From a virus: a stretch of 64,000 bases of DNA. The stretch is from positions 32,001-96,000 of the IMG/VR virus record IMGVR_UViG_3300035190_001334, one strand, 5' to 3'. The notes below the pieces were generated by a model. That model was given only the letters and a program-made list of their open reading frames with translations. It was not told the origin of the DNA and searched no databases. Positions within the stretch are counted from its first letter, which is position 1, and each line of letters opens with the position of its first letter. Shown in pieces: positions 5,460 through 56,000 of the stretch. The translations under genes and the position numbers were made by a program.

Positions 5460-8158
5460 TGACCTTAATTAAACCGTCTACGACATACTACTATCGCACT
5501 AAAGCTGTCAATCTTGATGGTGAATCTGCATATTCAAATATAGTCTCCGTGACTACTCCAGTTTCATCAATTGGCGTAAATATTACACCTCCATCTCCGT
5601 CAGCACCGATAATCATCGCTTCAGAAAAAAATAGTAATTCTATCAAAGTCGAGATACAAAAAAATCTACCAAACGAATACATAAAAGAGCTAAAACTTGA
5701 TGTATCGTTAAACGCCGACTTCAGCGCACCCCTTTATTCTGGACTGACATTTTTACTCCCAGATAACGTAGTTGGGACAGAAAAAGAAACTCTAGCACTC
5801 ACTATTGGCGGCTTGGCGGCAAATACACTCTACTACTACCGATTACGTTTCTCAAATGCAACTGGACTATCTGCGTGGACTTCTACTTCGCTTTCAACAA
5901 CCACGAACTTCCCTATTCCAGACGCTTTAGGCACAACGAACCTCACTGCTATTGCCGCCCGACTTAATTGGGGCAAAGTAACTGGCGCGACCACCTATTT
6001 TGTAGATTTGGCGACCAATTCTAGTTTTACATCCTTAATTCTTGATAATGTCAATGTAGGAGATGTAAGTTTTCGAGATGTAGGGTCGCTTACTGCTGAA
6101 AACCAATACTACTATCGGGTAAGAGCTTCAAATGGAACTATAACCTCAGCCAATAGTAATATAGTAACTTTTACAACACTTAGGGATGTAGAAACTTATA
6201 ATGAGCAGTTTCAAAATCTTGCCACACCGACAATTAGCAATATTACTGATATATATTTAACTTCTTTTTCTACCTCTTGGAACGCAGTGGATTTGGCGGA
6301 TAGCTATAGTGTTCAAGTATCGGCAGCTTCAGATTTTAGCTCGATTGCTCAAACTATTGCAACCAAGAATACGTCGGTCATCTTTACGGGACTAACTGCG
6401 GCAACTGTCTACTATGTGCGAGTACGGGCAATTTCTGTATGGCAAACGACTGCATATTCCGCTACACAAGTTGTAACTACTCTTTCACTTAATACTTCTC
6501 TCAATCCCCCTCAACTGCTCACACCGACAACAATCACTTCTCGTAGTATCTTATTTCAATGGGTTCTACGCAGTTATGCAACTCGATATTTGTTTGAGTT
6601 AAGTACTTCATCCGTATTTGCTTCGGTTGCTTATTCTACTATCGTAGGGAATGTCGGGTCTTTGTTGTTGGATGAAGGCATTAGCCCTGCAACAATCTAT
6701 TATTCACGTATTAGGGCGCTCAATTCTAGTCAGTCCTCAGATTACTCCAATGCAGTTACTACAACAACTTCAGCAGCCCTTACAAGCATCACTGGAATCA
6801 CTACAACTAGCATTACCGATACTTCGGCAGTTATTGGGTGGACTTTGAATGGCAGCTACACCAATTATTTGCTGTCAGTATGGAAAACAGAGTCAAATGC
6901 TTACTTAGGGGTCAACTTCTACCGCAACAAGAGCCTCGGCAACACCAACACACATACAATTGACCTATTCTTAGAGCCAAGTAGCAACTACAACTACACA
7001 ATCACTGGAAAAACAGCATCTGGCGACACAAAAACAACTGCGATACAGACATTTTCGACAAAAGCCGCCGCCCCAATACTGCAACTAGCCAAAAACCTCC
7101 TAACTTGGACATACAATCTCAACAATCTTGAAGTTAGCACTGATTCTGACTTCAAGTTCTTGCTTAGGGGGTATCCAAGAACGGTTACGGACAATGGCAG
7201 CTTCAATATAGAGAATTTGCTCGATTCCAACAACAATTACTATATTCGCGGCAACTTTAACGGCGGCATTTACTCCAATGTGGTCAGTACATCAGCTTTG
7301 GCGGTCTACAAGGGCATCGTTGGCAAAACTTCCTTTTCTGCCATCTGGAAGCGCAGTGCTGGAGCTACTTCATACAGTGTCCAACTAAAAGTGCTAGATA
7401 CTGGCAACTATGTGCCTGTAAGTGGCTTCACGTTCCCTAAGAATGTAGGCGACGTTAATAGCTACACATTTGAATCTCTTTCTGCTGACACACAATATCA
7501 GGTAATTGTATATGACTCCAATTCAAACGTTTCTACTCCATACCTATTCAAAACTAATTTGTTTAGTGATACAGAAGAACCTAGTACTGCATCTCTTACG
7601 GTTCCTACAGTAACTCTTAGTGGAAGTGCTGATTTTGACCGAGCAAACGTAGTATTAACTGGCTATTCTAAGTATCTAGTCAATTTGGCGCGAGATAGTG
7701 CATTCACACTCGACAATACCTATTTTGAGAGCAGTTCCAATAATATCGAGCTTTTACTCAAACCTAATCGTACATATTATTTACGCGCCTATGGTTACAA
7801 CGGTACTAATCGCACAGCTTCACCATCAACTACACTTACTATCAATACACCAGCAGAGCCATACACAGCGTTAGCCATCTCTTCTGCACCAAGTATTACT
7901 AACGTCAATATACTTGATGAATCACAGGTTGAAATTAAGTTCGCTCAAGTAAGTAATGCTACCGATTATAAGTTGGAGATTAGTCGTGCAAGTACTTTCA
8001 CAATTCTCGAAGAGCTTAGTGTTACTAGGTCTGCTGATAACAAATTCTTAATCTTCGGATTGAGTGGAACGACTGTATATTATGCTAGGTTGTATGCTTT
8101 CAATAGCACCAAAATCAGCGCTTACTCTGGAACCACAATAATCGATACTACCCCATAA
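5459..8158 (+). CDS. Fibronectin type III repeat protein (virion surface)
   Basis: Repeated W...A..Y...S....F...L.....YY.R(V/I)RA pattern, about 8 FN3-like units. Confidence 0.8.
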   Translation: MTLIKPSTTYYYRTKAVNLDGESAYSNIVSVTTPVSSIGVNITPPSPSAPIIIASEKNSNSIKVEIQKNLPNEYIKELKLDVSLNADFSAPLYSGLTFLLPDNVVGTEKETLALTIGGLAANTLYYYRLRFSNATGLSAWTSTSLSTTTNFPIPDALGTTNLTAIAARLNWGKVTGATTYFVDLATNSSFTSLILDNVNVGDVSFRDVGSLTAENQYYYRVRASNGTITSANSNIVTFTTLRDVETYNEQFQNLATPTISNITDIYLTSFSTSWNAVDLADSYSVQVSAASDFSSIAQTIATKNTSVIFTGLTAATVYYVRVRAISVWQTTAYSATQVVTTLSLNTSLNPPQLLTPTTITSRSILFQWVLRSYATRYLFELSTSSVFASVAYSTIVGNVGSLLLDEGISPATIYYSRIRALNSSQSSDYSNAVTTTTSAALTSITGITTTSITDTSAVIGWTLNGSYTNYLLSVWKTESNAYLGVNFYRNKSLGNTNTHTIDLFLEPSSNYNYTITGKTASGDTKTTAIQTFSTKAAAPILQLAKNLLTWTYNLNNLEVSTDSDFKFLLRGYPRTVTDNGSFNIENLLDSNNNYYIRGNFNGGIYSNVVSTSALAVYKGIVGKTSFSAIWKRSAGATSYSVQLKVLDTGNYVPVSGFTFPKNVGDVNSYTFESLSADTQYQVIVYDSNSNVSTPYLFKTNLFSDTEEPSTASLTVPTVTLSGSADFDRANVVLTGYSKYLVNLARDSAFTLDNTYFESSSNNIELLLKPNRTYYLRAYGYNGTNRTASPSTTLTINTPAEPYTALAISSAPSITNVNILDESQVEIKFAQVSNATDYKLEISRASTFTILEELSVTRSADNKFLIFGLSGTTVYYARLYAFNSTKISAYSGTTIIDTTP

Positions 8159-9886: not shown

Positions 9887-10552
9887 CTATTCTAGCGCAT
9901 TATAAGCATAGGCTAATTTCTCTTCGTCAGTGGCATTGCGCCAGCCCTCCCATTTAGGTTTTGTATTCCTTATTCTGCGATACAAAGTATTAAGCAATAC
10001 TTGTTCCGCTTCGGCTGCAATTTTTCTTGTTGGGTAGTATTTCCCGTTTATCATAACTGGCAAAGTTCTCCAGTGGTTCTCCCCACTAATTTTCTCTAGA
10101 GTTTCTTTAGATTTAAGCTTGCCGAGTTTTGCTATATGCTCTGGACTAAGTTTTCTACCCTTTTTCGCCTTGCTTAGCTTCTTCTTGTGTTCCTCGGTGA
10201 ATTTCTTACCCTTTTTCACAGCACTAAGTTTAGCCCTCATTTCTGGGGTTTGAATGCCCCCACCATAACCTCCAAGACAGATATTATAGGTATCGGGACG
10301 CTCTATAAATTCCTGAGTGACCATTTCAGCTTCAGCCAAATAAGCACCCTCAGCACAGGAAAATTCTGCAAGAGTAATCCTGCTAAAATTAGCTCTTCCA
10401 TATTTTTCAATAGCTGGTTTTAAGGCATAGCCACTGCCAAGATAGCGTTTGGAGTCAAAGGTATCGGTCAGTCTATGTACCCCAACATAAATCCTGCCAT
10501 TGCAAACGTTCGTAGTTTGATATAAAATCCAAGTCTCTTTATCTGTTTCCAT
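9887..10552 (-). CDS. GIY-YIG homing endonuclease with NUMOD3-like repeats
   Basis: ILYQTTN...IYVGVH...YLGSG...KYGRANF...YNICLGG; repeats KGKKFTEEHKKKLS / KGRKLSPEHIAKL. Confidence 0.9.
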   Translation of the reverse strand: METDKETWILYQTTNVCNGRIYVGVHRLTDTFDSKRYLGSGYALKPAIEKYGRANFSRITLAEFSCAEGAYLAEAEMVTQEFIERPDTYNICLGGYGGGIQTPEMRAKLSAVKKGKKFTEEHKKKLSKAKKGRKLSPEHIAKLGKLKSKETLEKISGENHWRTLPVMINGKYYPTRKIAAEAEQVLLNTLYRRIRNTKPKWEGWRNATDEEKLAYAYNALE

Positions 10553-10608
10553 TGCAAATATACCTTACCTGAGTTATAATAATAAGTATAACACACTGTG
10601 AGTACAAA

Positions 10609-10752
10609 ATGCGTCCTGATAAAAGTAAAAGATTGAATGTGAAATTGTCCGTAAAAAGACACGAAAAATTAGTAAAGTATGCCGAGTCTCAAGATAAAGA
10701 TATGACCTCTGTTATTGAGTGTTTTATTGATTCTCTTCCCAACATAGAATAA
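10609..10752 (+). CDS. Ribbon-helix-helix-like small DNA-binding protein (not in ORF track)
   Basis: MRPDKSKRLNVKLSVKRHEKLVKYAESQDKDMTSVIECFIDSLPNIE; paralog of 21688..21834; divergent from the GIY-YIG gene. Confidence 0.75.
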   Translation: MRPDKSKRLNVKLSVKRHEKLVKYAESQDKDMTSVIECFIDSLPNIE

Positions 10753-20084: not shown

Positions 20085-21683
20085 CTACCCTGCATCAGTA
20101 GTAGCAATCTTACCACGCTTCTTTACCACTCCAACACTATCCTTACGGGCTGAAAAAAGTATGATGTCAGATTTGCCATTTCCCGACAAAACTGGAGTTG
20201 TCCCACTAGGGAACAAGATAGTGTTGTCAAAAGCTACCGCACCTGTATTCTGTACCAATTCGACAATAAGTGCTTTAGTTTGATTATTGGCAAGCGTAGC
20301 GGTAAAGTTAATGTTAGTGATGGTGTTGCTTATATCTGCAACTGGAGTTTTTAAGATGAGGTAGTCATAATCTGCGTCAAGGTCGATTGTGTAGTTTGTC
20401 GGTGAGGATATTGTCACGGTGTTGGTCTTTATTTGGTCGCCAAGAGCCGTTATCACTTCGTTAGATAGCTTTGCCAGTCCAACGCTTCCGTCGGGCAATG
20501 CAGGATTAAAAACGACCCATCTACCAGTGGTCGGATTAGTGTTAGGAATCAGAACTGTGTCGCCGTTGTCGGACGCAGTGGATGCAGCATCGTACTTGTA
20601 AGGTCTATTGACCGATTCAACCAAACGCACTTGACCAGACTTGTATTGCACTGAGTTCAAGCTCTTGAGCGCCGCAATGTTGTCCACTGGCGCGTCCCAG
20701 AAAAGAAGGTCTTGTAGAAGCGCGTAATTGACCAGCTTGGGGTAGATACTGATGAAACTTTGTGCCGATACTCCGTCTAGAAGCTGTGAAGATGGTGTGA
20801 CTTCAATTACCACTGCTGAACCATCGGGGATGCCCTTGTTGAGCGCAATATCAAGCGTAGGGTACTCTTGCACCACTCCAAGGTTGTCGATACCAGTTGT
20901 ATCCAAGGCGAAAGAGGTGAGGTTTAAGTATCCAATAATCTTGACACCAAAGACGAGCCGTATAGCTGGGTCAGAGGTGTATTCGCTTAGATTGAGACGT
21001 AAACCCGTCAAAGTACCGCCAGTGTCGTTCACAATCCAGTATTTGATAGGGACTGGAATGGAATTGATGTTTTCGAGTGGGGCAACGAGTAGTGTCTCTT
21101 GGTCAGCGCTGATTACGTCAATTTCGGCTAACGAAGTGGTTTCGTAGAGGCTTGCTTCTCTAGTCTTGAACCAGCGACCGCTATTGTGTGCTAACACAGT
21201 AATATTATCGACACTTTCTACCGAACCGCTAACAAATTCGTAGCAGAAACCATTGGAATTTAAAGCTGCCCTAGTTCCCGTCAACAACCCAGTAAGATTA
21301 CTGATATCTGAAGGATTATTATATGTAGAGTTATTTAAAACAGATAAAGTTACATTAGTCGGAGTAACAGGTGTTATATAGTCTGCGGCAAAATGAGAAA
21401 ATTTGTATATTACCCTACTAGTTGTATAAGTATTGGTACTAGATATAGAAATAAGAGACTCTTTTACATCTTCATAGCCCAACGTGGTGAAGGTATCCGA
21501 AGAAATTACTATCGAGCCACTAGAAGATACTGTAATACTTGCAGATGGGGATGGTACAGTATACCCAGCCCTATTTCGCCTAACAAGCCACAGATAATAT
21601 GTCCCAGCCGCAAGGCTACCTCCTCCTACTGTTGATACTGTAGGGGCTACCAGTGTTTTACTTGAAGCATAGATAGTTTTCAT
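20085..21683 (-). CDS. Tail/fibre-attachment structural protein
   Basis: Two ...D..TVL...GRW modules; C-terminal QNTG...LSGNGK.DII module shared with 58490..60331. Confidence 0.6.
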   Translation of the reverse strand: MKTIYASSKTLVAPTVSTVGGGSLAAGTYYLWLVRRNRAGYTVPSPSASITVSSSGSIVISSDTFTTLGYEDVKESLISISSTNTYTTSRVIYKFSHFAADYITPVTPTNVTLSVLNNSTYNNPSDISNLTGLLTGTRAALNSNGFCYEFVSGSVESVDNITVLAHNSGRWFKTREASLYETTSLAEIDVISADQETLLVAPLENINSIPVPIKYWIVNDTGGTLTGLRLNLSEYTSDPAIRLVFGVKIIGYLNLTSFALDTTGIDNLGVVQEYPTLDIALNKGIPDGSAVVIEVTPSSQLLDGVSAQSFISIYPKLVNYALLQDLLFWDAPVDNIAALKSLNSVQYKSGQVRLVESVNRPYKYDAASTASDNGDTVLIPNTNPTTGRWVVFNPALPDGSVGLAKLSNEVITALGDQIKTNTVTISSPTNYTIDLDADYDYLILKTPVADISNTITNINFTATLANNQTKALIVELVQNTGAVAFDNTILFPSGTTPVLSGNGKSDIILFSARKDSVGVVKKRGKIATTDAG

Positions 21684-21687
21684 TATC

Positions 21688-21834
21688 TTATTTTAACACT
21701 ACCACTTCAGGCAAAGAATCAATCCAGTCTTCAAAAAGTACCGTCATGGCTCTGTCTCTGGACTCGGCGTAATTTTTAAGCTTTGTCATGCGTTTCTCTG
21801 ACAAAGTGGCGTTGAATCTCTTATCTTTACTCAT
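21688..21834 (-). CDS. Ribbon-helix-helix-like small DNA-binding protein (not in ORF track)
   Basis: MSKDKRFNATLSEKRMTKLKNYAESRDRAMTVLFEDWIDSLPEVVVLK; paralog of 10609..10752. Confidence 0.75.
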   Translation of the reverse strand: MSKDKRFNATLSEKRMTKLKNYAESRDRAMTVLFEDWIDSLPEVVVLK

Positions 21835-21892
21835 GATTAGTGTCAATGTTATGTTATACTTACTATTATATCCTAGAAAACGATATTACGCA

Positions 21893-22672
21893 ATGACAAA
21901 AGATAAAGATACATGGATTTTGTATAAAACTGAAAATTTGGTAAATCATAGAAGTTATGTTGGAGTGCATAAACTTGCCGACAACCTACGCTCTAAGAAT
22001 TACCTTGGTAGTGGAAATAATATAAAGACAGCTATAAAGAAATACGGAAGAGAAAATTTCATTAGAACTACACTTGCAGAGTTTGCTTGTGCCGAAGACG
22101 CTTACTCGGCTGAAGAAAAGATGGTAACTGAGGAATTTATTAAACGTAAAGATACTTATAACATAAGTCTTGGTGGTCGTGGTAGTTCCAAACATACGGA
22201 AGAAGCTAAGGCGAAAATTGCTATTTCACACAAGGGGAGAGAGTTTACGGAGCAACATAGGGCAAAAATCAGCGCGTCAGCAAAAGGTAGAAAGATGACT
22301 GAAGAAACAAAAATGAAAATTGCGATTGCAAACACAGGAAAAAAGCATACAGAAGAAACAATGAAAAAACTTCGAGGTAGAATTGTCAGCGAAGAGACTA
22401 GAGCAAAAAGTGCGGAGATATTTAGGGGTAAAACGCACACAGAGGAGGCAAAAAGTAGGATGAGCGAGGCAGCTAAACTTAGAACTGGTGCTAAAAATCA
22501 TTCAAGTATAGCAGTAGTGATAAATGGTAAATATTATGAAAATGCACATATAGCATCCCCCTTAGAACAAACACATTATCAAACTATAGTAAGTAGACTA
22601 AAATCGCCAACAGCTAAATGGTCTGAATGGCGCTATGCTACTGAAGAGGAAAAATTGTCCCACCAGATGTAG
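21893..22672 (+). CDS. GIY-YIG homing endonuclease with NUMOD3 repeats
   Basis: Start set at MTKDKDTWILY by alignment with 9887..10552; YVGVH, YLGSG, YNISLGG; repeated HTEE(A/T)K motifs. Confidence 0.9.
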   Translation: MTKDKDTWILYKTENLVNHRSYVGVHKLADNLRSKNYLGSGNNIKTAIKKYGRENFIRTTLAEFACAEDAYSAEEKMVTEEFIKRKDTYNISLGGRGSSKHTEEAKAKIAISHKGREFTEQHRAKISASAKGRKMTEETKMKIAIANTGKKHTEETMKKLRGRIVSEETRAKSAEIFRGKTHTEEAKSRMSEAAKLRTGAKNHSSIAVVINGKYYENAHIASPLEQTHYQTIVSRLKSPTAKWSEWRYATEEEKLSHQM

Positions 22673-22724
22673 TTGTGATGGTCGGTACAGGTAAGGTCTT
22701 TGACGCTGCGTAGGTAGTCTTCAT
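22638..22724 (-). pseudogene. Orphaned original 5' end of the 20085..21683 gene
   Basis: MKTTYAASKTLPVPTITTTSGG matches MKTIYASSKTLVAPTVSTVGGG at 14/22 positions, then runs into the antisense of the endonuclease 3' end and stops. Confidence 0.8.
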
Positions 22725-53092: not shown

Positions 53093-56000
53093 ATTGCATA
53101 AGCACTACTAGGTGGTGCAAAGCTTGCACCGTTGTAAAGCGAGATTCTTCGATACACCACAAAAGAATCCAAGTTGATGTTCAAGCCGCTTGTAGTTATT
53201 GCAGTGGCTTGTCCTATTTGTGCAGGTGTATTCCAGTCACGGTACTCGTAGTCATCAGCAGCTTCGTATACTCGAACTCCACCAACATACAACCTTAGTA
53301 TTCCATTTTGTCTTGTCAGAGCAATGTGGTTGAATACAGTCGAGGATAGGGACAAAGCTACAGAAAAGAGAGCAAGCCCAAGTATTAGAGAGCGCCCTAA
53401 GTATAATCGGTCGGCAGAAAAGAACAGTGAGAGTCCTTGTTGTGTGTAGATGTTAACCACCTCACCATTGGTAGCTTGGTCAGTAAGCAGCCAACCCGCA
53501 ATTGTAAAATCGCCCGACAGAAAAGAGAAGTCTGAGTCATTTGGTATTTGCACATAAGCTGGTACACTGTTTTTGGAAATAGGAAAGCTAGCGGCTCCGA
53601 ACTTTTTGGTAACGGTGTCAAGTACCGAGATGTTGCTGGTCAAGGTCTTGGAGCGATAACTTTGGTCAATAATACTGCTATCGAAGTTCAGTAACGTAAC
53701 TATTTTAGCTGGCTGGTAGTAGTCGCGAATGCTTCGCTCGATGGCAGAAAAAGAAGTTGGACTAATCTTGTAGTCCACAATACAAAACATGGCTACACTG
53801 CCTTTTACACTCCTGTCCTCGAACACCCTGTCCTTAGCAATGGAATTGATGGTAACTAGGTCAGTTGAGTTGAAAATGACTACGCTTAACGATTCTTCAG
53901 GTAGCACATAATCACGCTCTCTTTCTGCCCCGTTCGCCCAAACGTCCCCGTAGAAGTCATTTGCCAGTAATTCTCCATTGTTCCCAGAATTGAAAATGTT
54001 GTTGCTATCCTGACCAAATAAGAAAGCTGCACCAGTTTGCCCTGCTTTGCGAATGTAAGCCATGACGAAGCAGTAACCACTACTTGTGCTGGGAGTGCCG
54101 AAGTCGAGGTGCGAAGAGCCATCTATCTCAAATCGAGCCGCAGGTAGTCCATCGAGTTGAGTTGGTGTTGTGTAATTCACTGCGTTCGTCGATATTAATT
54201 CCTGACCATTTGTGCGATACTCATCAAGTTGAAGTATGTTGCCGCTTGATAGTGTAACGGTTTCAGGTGTGACGATGAAAAATGAACTGAAGGTATTAAG
54301 CAGTCCTTTCAAGTTGATGTAAAGCTGATTAGTAAGTAAAGTGATGCTGACGTTAAAACTGAAAGTGACAGACTCGGTAGCTGTGTAGGTTCGGATGGTG
54401 AAACTGATAAAATCGTCGGTCGGGCAAGTGAATGTAAGGTCGTTGCCAGTTATTGTTGCCGAGTAGTGGTTGACCAGTATTTCATAGCTGACTGCATTAC
54501 CAGCAATTTCAGTGACCTTTTTGTCGAGGTTAACAATAACGTCAGAGCTATACCTGAACTCAGTTGAAGTGTTAAACAACAGTAAAGTAGAATCAAAAAA
54601 CTTGTTGGCTAGTAAGTGTGTAGCTTCTGCAAGTTCAGCTTCGCTCAATGCAACAGACCAGCCAATGAAATACAGTAGTTCCCCTTTCAGTTGAGAAGAG
54701 AATCCACTAAAGCCTATTGAAGAAGTTGCATTAGTAGCCGCGATGATTGCGCCGTAGTCTATGGGTTGGCGATAATTAAAAGTATTGACCCCAACTTTGT
54801 TGACTTTTGTGTTCAACTGCGTTATAGCTGTAGTTCCAAACACATCATCACTGGTTCCTGTAGTCCAAAGAACACCATTGGCAAATATATCTGGAAAGCC
54901 GTTAGCCATGAAGCGTTCACCAGTTTGTTTCTGCTTATATACCCAAATGAAGGTTTTGCAATTGACTGAAGTGCCTGAGAGTGAACGAGGATTGAGAGAA
55001 CTATTGGTGATGAAGGAAGAGGTCGTACCGTTGTAAGTTATTTGGTTGACCGAATCGGCTGTGCTGGTGACGTACAGAGGCTTATCAGGTAATCGGCGTG
55101 AGTCTTCCCATTTAGTTATGTTGCCAAAATTATCGGTGTAAATTCCGTAAGGTATGTCATCTACATCTTTTAACGTGGAAAGTGATACCGCTATGTTTGA
55201 TTGTTGTGGTAAGTCAAGAATAAAGGGGTCTGCTATTACAGTTTCTAGTGAAAAACTAAAATAAGACACCATACTATTGCTGTTAGTGATGCTGATGCTA
55301 AAACTACCATCAAAAACTTCAGGTATATAACCTGATAAAACTGAACCTGTGAAGCTTAGTCCTAAGCCACTTGGAGATATATAGCTGTACGAAGTGATAT
55401 CAAAAAATTCGTCAATTGCAATAGTCGCAAAGTCAAAGCTAAAATAAGCCCCAACAAATGCTCTAAATGAAGGTTGAGATGAAATAACTACACCATTGTA
55501 AGCAATATATATTTGAGCTAACTTAGCTTCTACTGATGCCAATATATCTAACGGGCAAGGTGATGATGATGTGATGATTGCAGCTATTTTTCCACGAACA
55601 CTGAAGTTGCTAGTCCCATTTTTACCCCCAAAACCTGTAATAGTTTCATACTCGTTGCTATTGGATATGTTGGTGACACTTAAAATTCTTGAGGTGTTAA
55701 GGGGAACGAACGTTGTTGGTGCTACTGCTCGACTATTTATTCTTGATGTGGCATTGTAAATAGAGTTGCCAGCTAAAGGCTGCTCTGACCAAAGCGAAGC
55801 GCCACCAGAAGGAAAAGCATCATAAAGAAAAGGTGGGTCGCCTAGTGTTTGACGAGGGGCATATATTAGAAAACTACCTGACTCCCTTGTAAGGTAAACG
55901 AGAATAATTGTACCTACATTGATAGGTCTGTTGAAAAATAGTTGTTGATTACCAGTATCTGAGAAGTTTATGCTTGGCTGATTATTAAACTGGCTATCAT

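Follow-up and report, generated by a model that had tools for sequence, protein, structure and literature searches.

In phage T4, free-standing seg (GIY-YIG) and mob (HNH) endonucleases carry out 'intronless homing' with co-conversion of flanking markers, and the endonuclease I-TevI represses its own promoter (PMC2988022). Mitochondrial mORFs with a foreign gene C-terminus are known in fungi, namely in atp6 of Allomyces macrogynus and in atp6, atp9, cox2 and nad3 of Glomus sp. (PMC3630166). Nuclease genes have also been described at the boundaries of genetic exchange, as 'HEG islands' (Barth et al., PMC10448857). Concerning small regulators, Arc proteins repress the divergent promoter of IS605 elements, operator binding was shown for these IS605 Arc homologues, and Arc homologues are also found next to homing endonucleases (Moon et al., bioRxiv 10.64898/2026.09.24.754181). 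We analysed a locus, referred to as site C, in which a GIY-YIG homing endonuclease gene and an Arc-like ribbon-helix-helix (RHH) gene separate a short 5' stump of a tail-fibre-like gene from an intact copy of the same gene with a foreign start. The locus lies in a 64,000-nt window, by which we mean the whole stretch of DNA analysed (bases 32001–96000 of the 145,466-bp, metagenome-assembled IMG/VR virus record IMGVR_UViG_3300035190_001334). It is probably a case of intronless homing combined with mitochondrial-style gene-end replacement, both known kinds of event, here at a 5' end. The searchable literature yielded neither a paper that treats endonucleases of Pseudanabaena phages nor a case, in any phage, of a replaced 5' end with a stump left behind.

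The host of the locus is a Pseudanabaena cyanophage, whose nearest cultured relatives are the Pseudanabaena phages PA-SR01 and Pam2 (about 83% nucleotide identity). Ten relatives were recovered for comparison; genomes are cited by working numbers where they need to be told apart. In the direction of the tail operon (minus strand), the locus opens with a gene of 56 amino acids from the ORF list (g56, 22897–22727; 96% amino acid identity to L007). The ATG of the stump follows 2 nt past g56, at 22724; the stump (22724–22658, minus strand) comprises 67 nt, i.e. 22 codons and one nucleotide, and opens MKTTYAASKTLPVPTITTTSGG. Past MKTTYAASKTLPVPTITTTSGG its frame continues with TIFPLQ and meets a stop at 22640–22638, inside the antisense endonuclease sequence. 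The free-standing GIY-YIG and NUMOD3 homing endonuclease gene (260 aa) occupies 21890–22672 on the plus strand, antisense to the tail operon, and its last four codons and stop (22658–22672) are the antisense of the stump. It is followed by a divergent spacer of 55 nt (21835–21889) and by the RHH gene (21834–21688, minus strand, 48 aa), which has the direction of the tail gene. Four nucleotides after the end of the RHH gene, the ATG at 21683 starts the intact tail-fibre-like gene of 532 aa (21683–20085, minus strand), opening MKTIYASSKTLVAPTVSTVGGG. A homologue of this gene is labelled tail fibre protein in the Pam2 record.

The stump corresponds to the native start of the gene. Of 66 nt of the stump, 63 agree with the beginning of the gene in L007, a cassette-free relative, and 61 with that in L006; with the start of its own working gene the stump shares 14 of 22 residues and 35 of 66 nt. 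These matches are far beyond chance. A single BLAST block of 397 nt against L007 (89.4% identical) extends from g56 across the 2-nt spacer and breaks off precisely at nt 67 of the gene. In PA-SR01, L007, L008 and L011, g56 homologues lie directly upstream of the tail gene, which is intact and begins 2 nt on; g56 is thus the native neighbour in cassette-free relatives. These alignments place the upstream edge of the cassette inside the old coding sequence, after nt 67. A preliminary description of this DNA had proposed that an element invaded a coding sequence, leaving an old start 2 nt after the upstream gene that is cut off by the 3' end of the endonuclease gene, and an intact gene, 14/22 like the old start, 4 nt after the RHH stop. 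All of these elements were found in their places, with the same identity and spacing, and the cassette edge after nt 67 agrees with the proposed invasion. Its remark that most codons of shared residues were changed also held, as within the first 22 codons different codons encode 12 of the 14 residues in common, and the continuity that it expected between remnant and gene in cassette-free relatives is seen in L007, L008, L011 and PA-SR01.

The working gene is a chimera. Over nt 1–477 it is 52–66% identical to the ten relatives at the nucleotide level, and in 90-nt intervals the first 480 nt or so are 47–71% identical to each of them. Across nt 1–480 the window sequence is an outlier (0.56–0.61), compared with 0.62–0.99 for the relatives among themselves. 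From about nt 480 the identity to L006 rises to 0.91–1.00 in most 90-nt intervals, with several at 100%, and from nt 541 to the end of the gene it is 0.94. Based on three-way informative sites, the change from donor type to L006 type falls between nt 477 and 480 of the gene (window positions 21207/21204). The gene can thus be divided into a foreign AT-rich 5' tract (gene nt 1–477, aa 1–159; 21683–21207, minus strand) and a remainder of backbone type (gene nt 478–1599; 21206–20085, minus strand). The GC content at third codon positions (GC3) is 0.27 in the first 480 nt and 0.48 in the remainder, in line with the earlier impression, gained by eye, that roughly the first 500 nt are AT-rich, for which the preliminary description had suggested GC3 as a check. 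Nine cassette-free relatives have no comparable drop (0.37–0.49 in the 5' part vs 0.34–0.45 in the rest). The 532-aa ORF is intact and can be aligned end to end with 30 homologues, so that the foreign start is fused in frame. The donor-type tract of 477 nt abuts the cassette and switches sharply to the backbone type, and we infer that the endonuclease was the cause of the donor tract.

A search with residues 1–165 recovered three other proteins of the 532-aa form, and their contigs were retrieved. Against two of these, L029 and L030, the tract has a nucleotide identity of about 85–91% up to nt ~450 and of 0.74–0.76 in the last interval before the breakpoint; the tracts of L029 and L030 share the low GC3 (0.28). 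Substitutions were estimated by the Nei–Gojobori method, separately for the 5' tract and the rest of the gene. Between the window and L006, the proportion of differing synonymous sites (pS) in the 5' tract is 0.83, i.e. saturated, and that of non-synonymous sites (pN) is 0.28, whereas the rest of the gene has a synonymous distance (dS) of 0.22 and a non-synonymous distance (dN) of 0.02. Between the window and L029 or L030, dS is 0.44–0.50 in the 5' tract and about 0.93 in the 3' part. These estimates indicate that the tract is an anciently diverged allele which moved between backbones more recently than the backbones split, because dS is lower in the tract than in the 3' parts of its carriers. 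The earlier proposal that the cassette restores the gene with a new, recoded 5' segment therefore stands in part: a foreign 5' tract does adjoin the cassette, but with 28% of the non-synonymous sites differing and the synonymous sites saturated it is an old natural allele and not a recoded copy. The same class of allele occurs in L030, which has neither cassette nor remnant, an outcome that the preliminary description had named as speaking against recoding. The L030 allele does not contradict homing with co-conversion of the donor's natural allele.

Concerning the protein, the N-terminal 160 aa or so are variable among 31 homologues of the tail-fibre-like protein (58–91% amino acid identity among relatives) and the C-terminal 370 aa or so are highly conserved (86–97%). 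A variable N-terminus with a conserved C-terminus is the reverse of the usual tail-fibre pattern. The AlphaFold2 (AF2) model of the 532-aa protein has a mean pLDDT of 49.8 and is confident only at residues ~9–115 and 417–530; the swapped tract contains an N-terminal beta domain that is modelled with confidence. A Foldseek comparison of this model with the PDB yielded nothing usable (TM scores up to about 0.15), and a PDB sequence search with the tail protein gave no matches.

A close parallel to this gene structure is that of the fungal mORFs. In both cases a duplicated gene end flanks the endonuclease ORF, a divergent inserted copy is fused in frame to the host gene (nucleotide identity of the inserted copy 64–81% in the Glomus mORFs vs about 53–59% here), and the native copy remains as an unexpressed stump which matches close relatives (91–98% there, 63 of 66 nt here). 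Unlike in the mORFs, it is the 5' end with the start codon that is replaced and not the 3' end, i.e. the mirror image; the endonuclease reads antisense, outside the frame of the host gene. Moreover, the gene that hosts the element encodes a structural protein of a phage, and the element includes an RHH regulator. Judged by its gene structure, the locus appears to work like an mORF but as a mirror-image variant and not as a member of the group, since the replaced end is 5' and the endonuclease is antisense, whereas in mORFs the 3' (C-terminal) end is replaced and the endonuclease is found downstream on the same strand.

The endonuclease matches PHROG 314 'homing endonuclease' (E 2.4e-44). Pfam NUMOD3 scores 39.7 bits against a cutoff of 20.4, which identifies the DNA-binding module, and SegE_GIY-YIG remains below its cutoff in the window endonuclease (17.3 vs 25 bits). 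The paralogue L031C passes PF01541 (25.8 vs 22.6), and I-TevI_DNA-bd is found only in L031C, below the cutoff. The motif WILY..YVGVHK..YLGSG..AEF..YN..GG is invariant across 13 paralogues (that of the window and 12 others), and its conserved Tyr, Tyr, Glu and Asn positions point to a GIY-YIG catalytic domain. A C-terminal block, W.W/YR.AT.EE, is also conserved among the paralogues. In the mechanical ORF list the endonuclease starts at 21788 (294 aa) and overlaps the RHH gene; this longer form is probably not used and the ATG at 21890 is probably the start, because all paralogues start at that position (MTKDKDTWILY). The endonucleases are about 42–55% identical to each other in amino acids, and the two at site C in the window and in L029 are 53% identical. 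Comparison of the paralogues suggests that the DNA-binding arm undergoes repeat shuffling. The number of NUMOD3 repeats varies widely among the 13 paralogues (221–350 aa), and in the window (22180–22600) and the paralogues the NUMOD3 region is the least conserved part of the cassette. A PDB sequence search with the endonuclease gave no matches.

The endonuclease family is polymorphic for presence and absence at site C, and two further sites of insertion, A and B, are likewise variable, which is in keeping with the homing-type behaviour, like that of free-standing homing endonucleases, assumed in the preliminary description. Around nt 49–84 of the gene the old and the AT-rich alleles are only 43–44% identical, among the least similar regions of the two; conservation of this putative target region among the old alleles is unremarkable (0.69–0.70). 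As in the seg systems of T4, a free-standing GIY-YIG enzyme with a modular DNA-binding tail has its place between genes of the phage, occurs in some relatives but not in others, and is adjoined by a donor tract. The seg genes either lie cleanly between genes or divide a gene into two parts that both work, whereas here a dead stump of 67 nt and a foreign gene start are found, and the endonuclease, whose cleavage activity is putative, has a separate RHH partner gene. The cassette also lies at a mosaic boundary, as the upstream DNA is closest to L007 and the downstream DNA to L006. As in HEG islands, the endonuclease is thus placed exactly where the best-matching relative changes, and DNA-binding repeats appear to be shuffled between paralogues; unlike in those islands (>10 kb), the boundary is inside a coding sequence, a stump is retained and the scale is hundreds of bases.

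The RHH sequence of the window has no Pfam match and matches Arc-like proteins in PHROG at E 0.008 only. A hidden Markov model built from 13 RHH sequences matched 219 representative clusters; among 44 sampled members of the family, DUF6364 was found in 33, 56B_RHH in 19 and RHH_10 in eight. Against the PDB, the RHH profiles gave marginal matches only (ParG and 56B). Three distant members, 43–48% identical, are each divergent to a TnpB/OrfB_IS605 gene, and the homology to the TnpB-adjacent members has profile E values of 1e-12 to 1e-16. By these profile matches the phage RHH protein is a homologue of the 'Arc' repressors of IS605/TnpB elements. A model of the RHH homodimer scored 0.52 (best control 0.00) with residues 5–11 of the two copies paired, runs agreeing in at least 96% of contacts and a partner pLDDT of at least 80; in the calibration the mark was reached by 20 of 30 known pairs and by one of 23 single chains, and the pass may reflect likeness to solved RHH dimers. 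The AF2 monomer, a single long helix, was set aside as uninformative for an obligate dimer. An alignment of nine module spacers shows invariant TATAAT and TATAACA boxes, so that the 55-nt spacer is a candidate for an overlapping bidirectional promoter with an RHH operator; a sigma-70 promoter scan gave seven matches on both strands vs 4.9 expected from shuffling, which is not significant.

By homology to the IS605 proteins, the phage RHH protein would repress the overlapping divergent promoters of the module and so limit expression of the endonuclease. The tail gene may be transcribed from the promoter of the RHH gene, as the preliminary description supposed, or by read-through out of the upstream operon; conserved boxes are present for the former, but Arc-type repressors shut divergent promoters of this kind. 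In both settings a homologous small RHH protein is divergent from a nuclease gene across a spacer of ~45–70 nt. Here, however, the partner is a protein-guided GIY-YIG homing endonuclease in a phage and not TnpB/TnpA, and repression is predicted. The arrangement resembles that of I-TevI in that the homing endonuclease's own promoter would be kept under repression; in T4 the endonuclease itself is the repressor, whereas here a separate RHH protein is the candidate.

The pair of endonuclease and RHH gene is a recurrent mobile module in the Pseudanabaena phage group. In the relatives it is found at three sites at least: A (before a 248-aa gene), B (after a 1643-aa gene) and C. In all copies the RHH gene is co-directional with the next host gene and ends 0–25 nt before it, and the endonuclease is antisense; in three copies at site A the RHH stop overlaps the ATG of the host gene. 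The module occurs twice in the window genome, at sites C and A, and site B is empty there. The copy at site A (9887–10752; endonuclease 10552–9887, minus strand, 221 aa; RHH 10609–10752, plus strand, 47 aa) stands 3 nt before the 248-aa gene; on the opposite strand, a gene of 510 aa starts 27 nt away. No remnant accompanies this copy, which is cleanly intergenic; the site is occupied in four other relatives and empty in PA-SR01 (intergenic gap of 42 nt). Local alignment of the first 60 aa of the downstream gene with the 3' flank of the endonuclease gave scores of 21–27, i.e. noise, at the other two sites, and 78–80 at site C. The module is therefore not generally accompanied by a stump, since only site C scores above noise.

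Site C itself is occupied in the window, L029 and L031/L032, and empty in L006–L013, L030 and both cultured phages, PA-SR01 and Pam2. Four genomes are known to carry the 532-aa form of the allele, and three of them have an endonuclease at the site. L029, an independent 139-kb scaffold from ENA, has the whole arrangement: a stump, an antisense endonuclease of 260 aa, an RHH gene of 48 aa, 4 nt and the AT-rich gene. Its stump reads MKTTYAASEALTSPTITTTSGG, and the upstream gene belongs to the MKHFADFG family and is not g56. The junction falls after nt 67 in both genomes, and both endonuclease ORFs end six residues past the EEE motif. Between the two, the DNA is 80–95% alike from the start of the tail gene across the RHH gene and the spacer to nt ~90 of the endonuclease gene, 37–57% in the NUMOD3 region, and 68–82% at the 3' end of the endonuclease and the stump. 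The stumps match different native allele types: at nt 67 the window has A, in agreement with L006/L007 (Ser codon AGC), and L029 has T, in agreement with L013 (codon TCA), so that each stump resembles a native allele of its own kind. As far as these alignments go, the shared junction fits either origin on one occasion and homing thereafter, in which the left crossover lay in the stump or upstream DNA, or repeated insertion at one precise site, and both histories point to site-specific insertion inside a coding sequence. In L030 the AT-rich allele stands 1 nt after an MQHF-family gene, with no endonuclease, RHH gene or stump. L031/L032 contain a GIY-YIG/NUMOD3 endonuclease of 229 aa between g56 and the gene, with neither RHH gene nor stump, and their tail gene is AT-rich-like only over nt ~270–450. 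In L031 (5269–6001; L032 alike) the endonuclease overlaps the 3' end of g56, and the TATAAT box of the spacer is kept about 25 nt before the ATG of the tail gene. N-terminal alleles are mosaic in L013 and L031.

We consider it likely (probability about 0.7) that the free-standing GIY-YIG/NUMOD3 endonuclease and the divergent Arc-like RHH gene act as one module, and that the composite locus arose and spread by homing with co-conversion. The module would first have stood just upstream of the ATG of an AT-rich allele like that of L030. On one occasion a phage with the 'old allele' would have been cut in the 5' region of the gene, and in the double-strand-break repair that followed the upstream end would have been fused illegitimately, at nt 67, with the endonuclease gene at its 3' end, possibly helped by a short microhomology (a candidate is TCCCACC in the endonuclease 3' end and GGTGGGA in the gene), and the downstream end would have recombined legitimately in the conserved part of the gene. 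The composite would then spread by ordinary homing, with the 67-nt stump and the upstream DNA as left homology arm and the tail gene as right arm; in the window the second crossover would lie at nt 477–480, and the AT-rich 5' tract would have been dragged along as a co-conversion tract. The endonuclease would putatively cut the old allele and spare both the interrupted stump and the AT-rich allele as immune. Each genome would keep its own native stump sequence because the stump and the upstream DNA serve as the left arm.

Several points weigh against this history. Both cleavage by the endonuclease and the position of its cut are putative. The case for microhomology at the junction is borderline, being based on a pair of distant paralogues that also end in EKL[S/N]H. 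Since the AT-rich allele occurs without a cassette in L030, it may have spread independently of the endonuclease. The endonucleases of the window and L029 may differ in target, with paralogues recombining, and free recombination among paralogues weakens the claim that the present enzyme still targets site C. Pattern scans for the junction in viral contigs gave no match, and the composite is known from two genomes only. In a separate metagenome scan for the junction of RHH stop and ATG, four contigs were retrieved and rejected, as none encodes a relative of the cassette or tail proteins.

Some of these points, among them the AT-rich allele without cassette in L030, would also be expected if cleavage had no causal part, that is, if co-infecting phages had exchanged the AT-rich N-terminal module by homologous recombination alone and the endonuclease module with the stump were an unrelated illegitimate insertion at a hotspot. 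The gap between g56 and the tail gene is such a hotspot, since six of the ten relatives have unrelated MQHFA[ND]FG-family genes there; the mosaic N-terminal alleles of L013 and L031 and the identity of only about 50% between same-site endonucleases point in the same direction. We nevertheless regard ordinary mosaicism as unlikely: the tract boundary, cassette and stump are contiguous in two genomes with the same junction, the endonuclease accompanies three of the four carriers of the 532-aa form, the tract is younger than its backbones, and the module family has the presence/absence pattern of homing elements. Another explanation, the strict form of the earlier proposal, is that the 5' segment was purpose-recoded as part of the element, so as to destroy the recognition site, and that the RHH promoter now expresses the tail gene. 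The changed codons at 12 of 14 shared residues in the first 22 codons would fit, as would the low similarity between old and AT-rich alleles at nt ~49–84 (0.43–0.44), the RHH stop 4 nt from the tail ATG with conserved promoter boxes present, and the TATAAT box which L031 keeps about 25 nt before the tail ATG although it has no RHH gene. However, a whole-tract pN of 0.28 with an amino acid identity of only ~64% is that of an old divergent allele and not of a synonymous recode, the allele is found in its native context without a cassette in L030, and only 67 nt are duplicated, yet the foreign tract measures 477 nt; moreover, Arc-type RHH proteins repress such promoters (bioRxiv 10.64898/2026.09.24.754181). 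This makes purposeful recoding decidedly improbable.

Least probable is that the chimera and the duplication are artefacts of assembly, produced when reads of two phage strains present together were mis-joined. The window does come from an IMG/VR contig, and related strains do co-occur in freshwater metagenomes, but L029, which was assembled independently (ENA), shows this architecture with its junction as well, in DNA that is ~85–90% identical, all ORFs are intact, and the breakpoints are clean and lie in conserved sequence.

If the locus did arise by homing with co-conversion, it is a clean natural example of a selfish nuclease which enters a phage coding sequence with neither intron nor intein, the gene being kept working by a replacement start, and a sharp mosaic boundary inside a virion gene is explained. 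It also suggests that N-terminal domains of tail proteins may hitch-hike on homing elements. The Arc repressors of IS605/TnpB elements are linked in this way to phage homing endonucleases, with a testable shared logic in which a small RHH protein quiets a homing nuclease. The predictions are open to bench testing, because the cultured PA-SR01 and Pam2 have empty sites. A further-reaching possibility, which we put forward tentatively and consider doubtful, is that endonuclease, Arc-like RHH gene and portable start form a self-contained 'gene-head replacement' element with its own regulated promoter, which enters a structural gene within its 5' end and systematically carries whole N-terminal domains of a tail-fibre-like protein, in sweeps, from one phage backbone to another, and whose regulator has been exchanged between IS605/TnpB transposons and phage homing endonucleases. 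Were this so, two classes of homing nuclease that differ in mechanism would be under the control of a single repressor family.

Looking at the module copies outside site C, those at site B come immediately after the Laminin_G_3 gene of 1643 aa in PA-SR01 as well as in three further relatives (L019 1468–2450, corresponding to PA-SR01 54896–55900; L024; L027; L029 12993–13599), and the 3' end of the endonuclease touches or overlaps the stop of the 1643-aa gene. The RHH proteins are of two sequence types (MSKDKRFNA... and MRPDKSKRLNA...), which track neither insertion site nor endonuclease. The RHH gene of the window (21688–21834) is 98% identical to that of a site-B copy (L024 1294–1440), and their endonucleases are only 51% identical. 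The paralogues therefore recombine freely, because the RHH types do not follow site or endonuclease.

Concerning the 2-nt gap between g56 and the tail gene, most relatives have one or two MQHFA[ND]FG-family genes there. These are paralogous, comprise 155–219 aa and begin MQHFA[ND]FG..KQANKQLKRL. Their positions are L006 4455–5000, L009 480–1539, L010 4341–4997, L013 4275–4838, L002 (Pam2) 6601–7880, L029 3692–4957 and L030 1638–2806.

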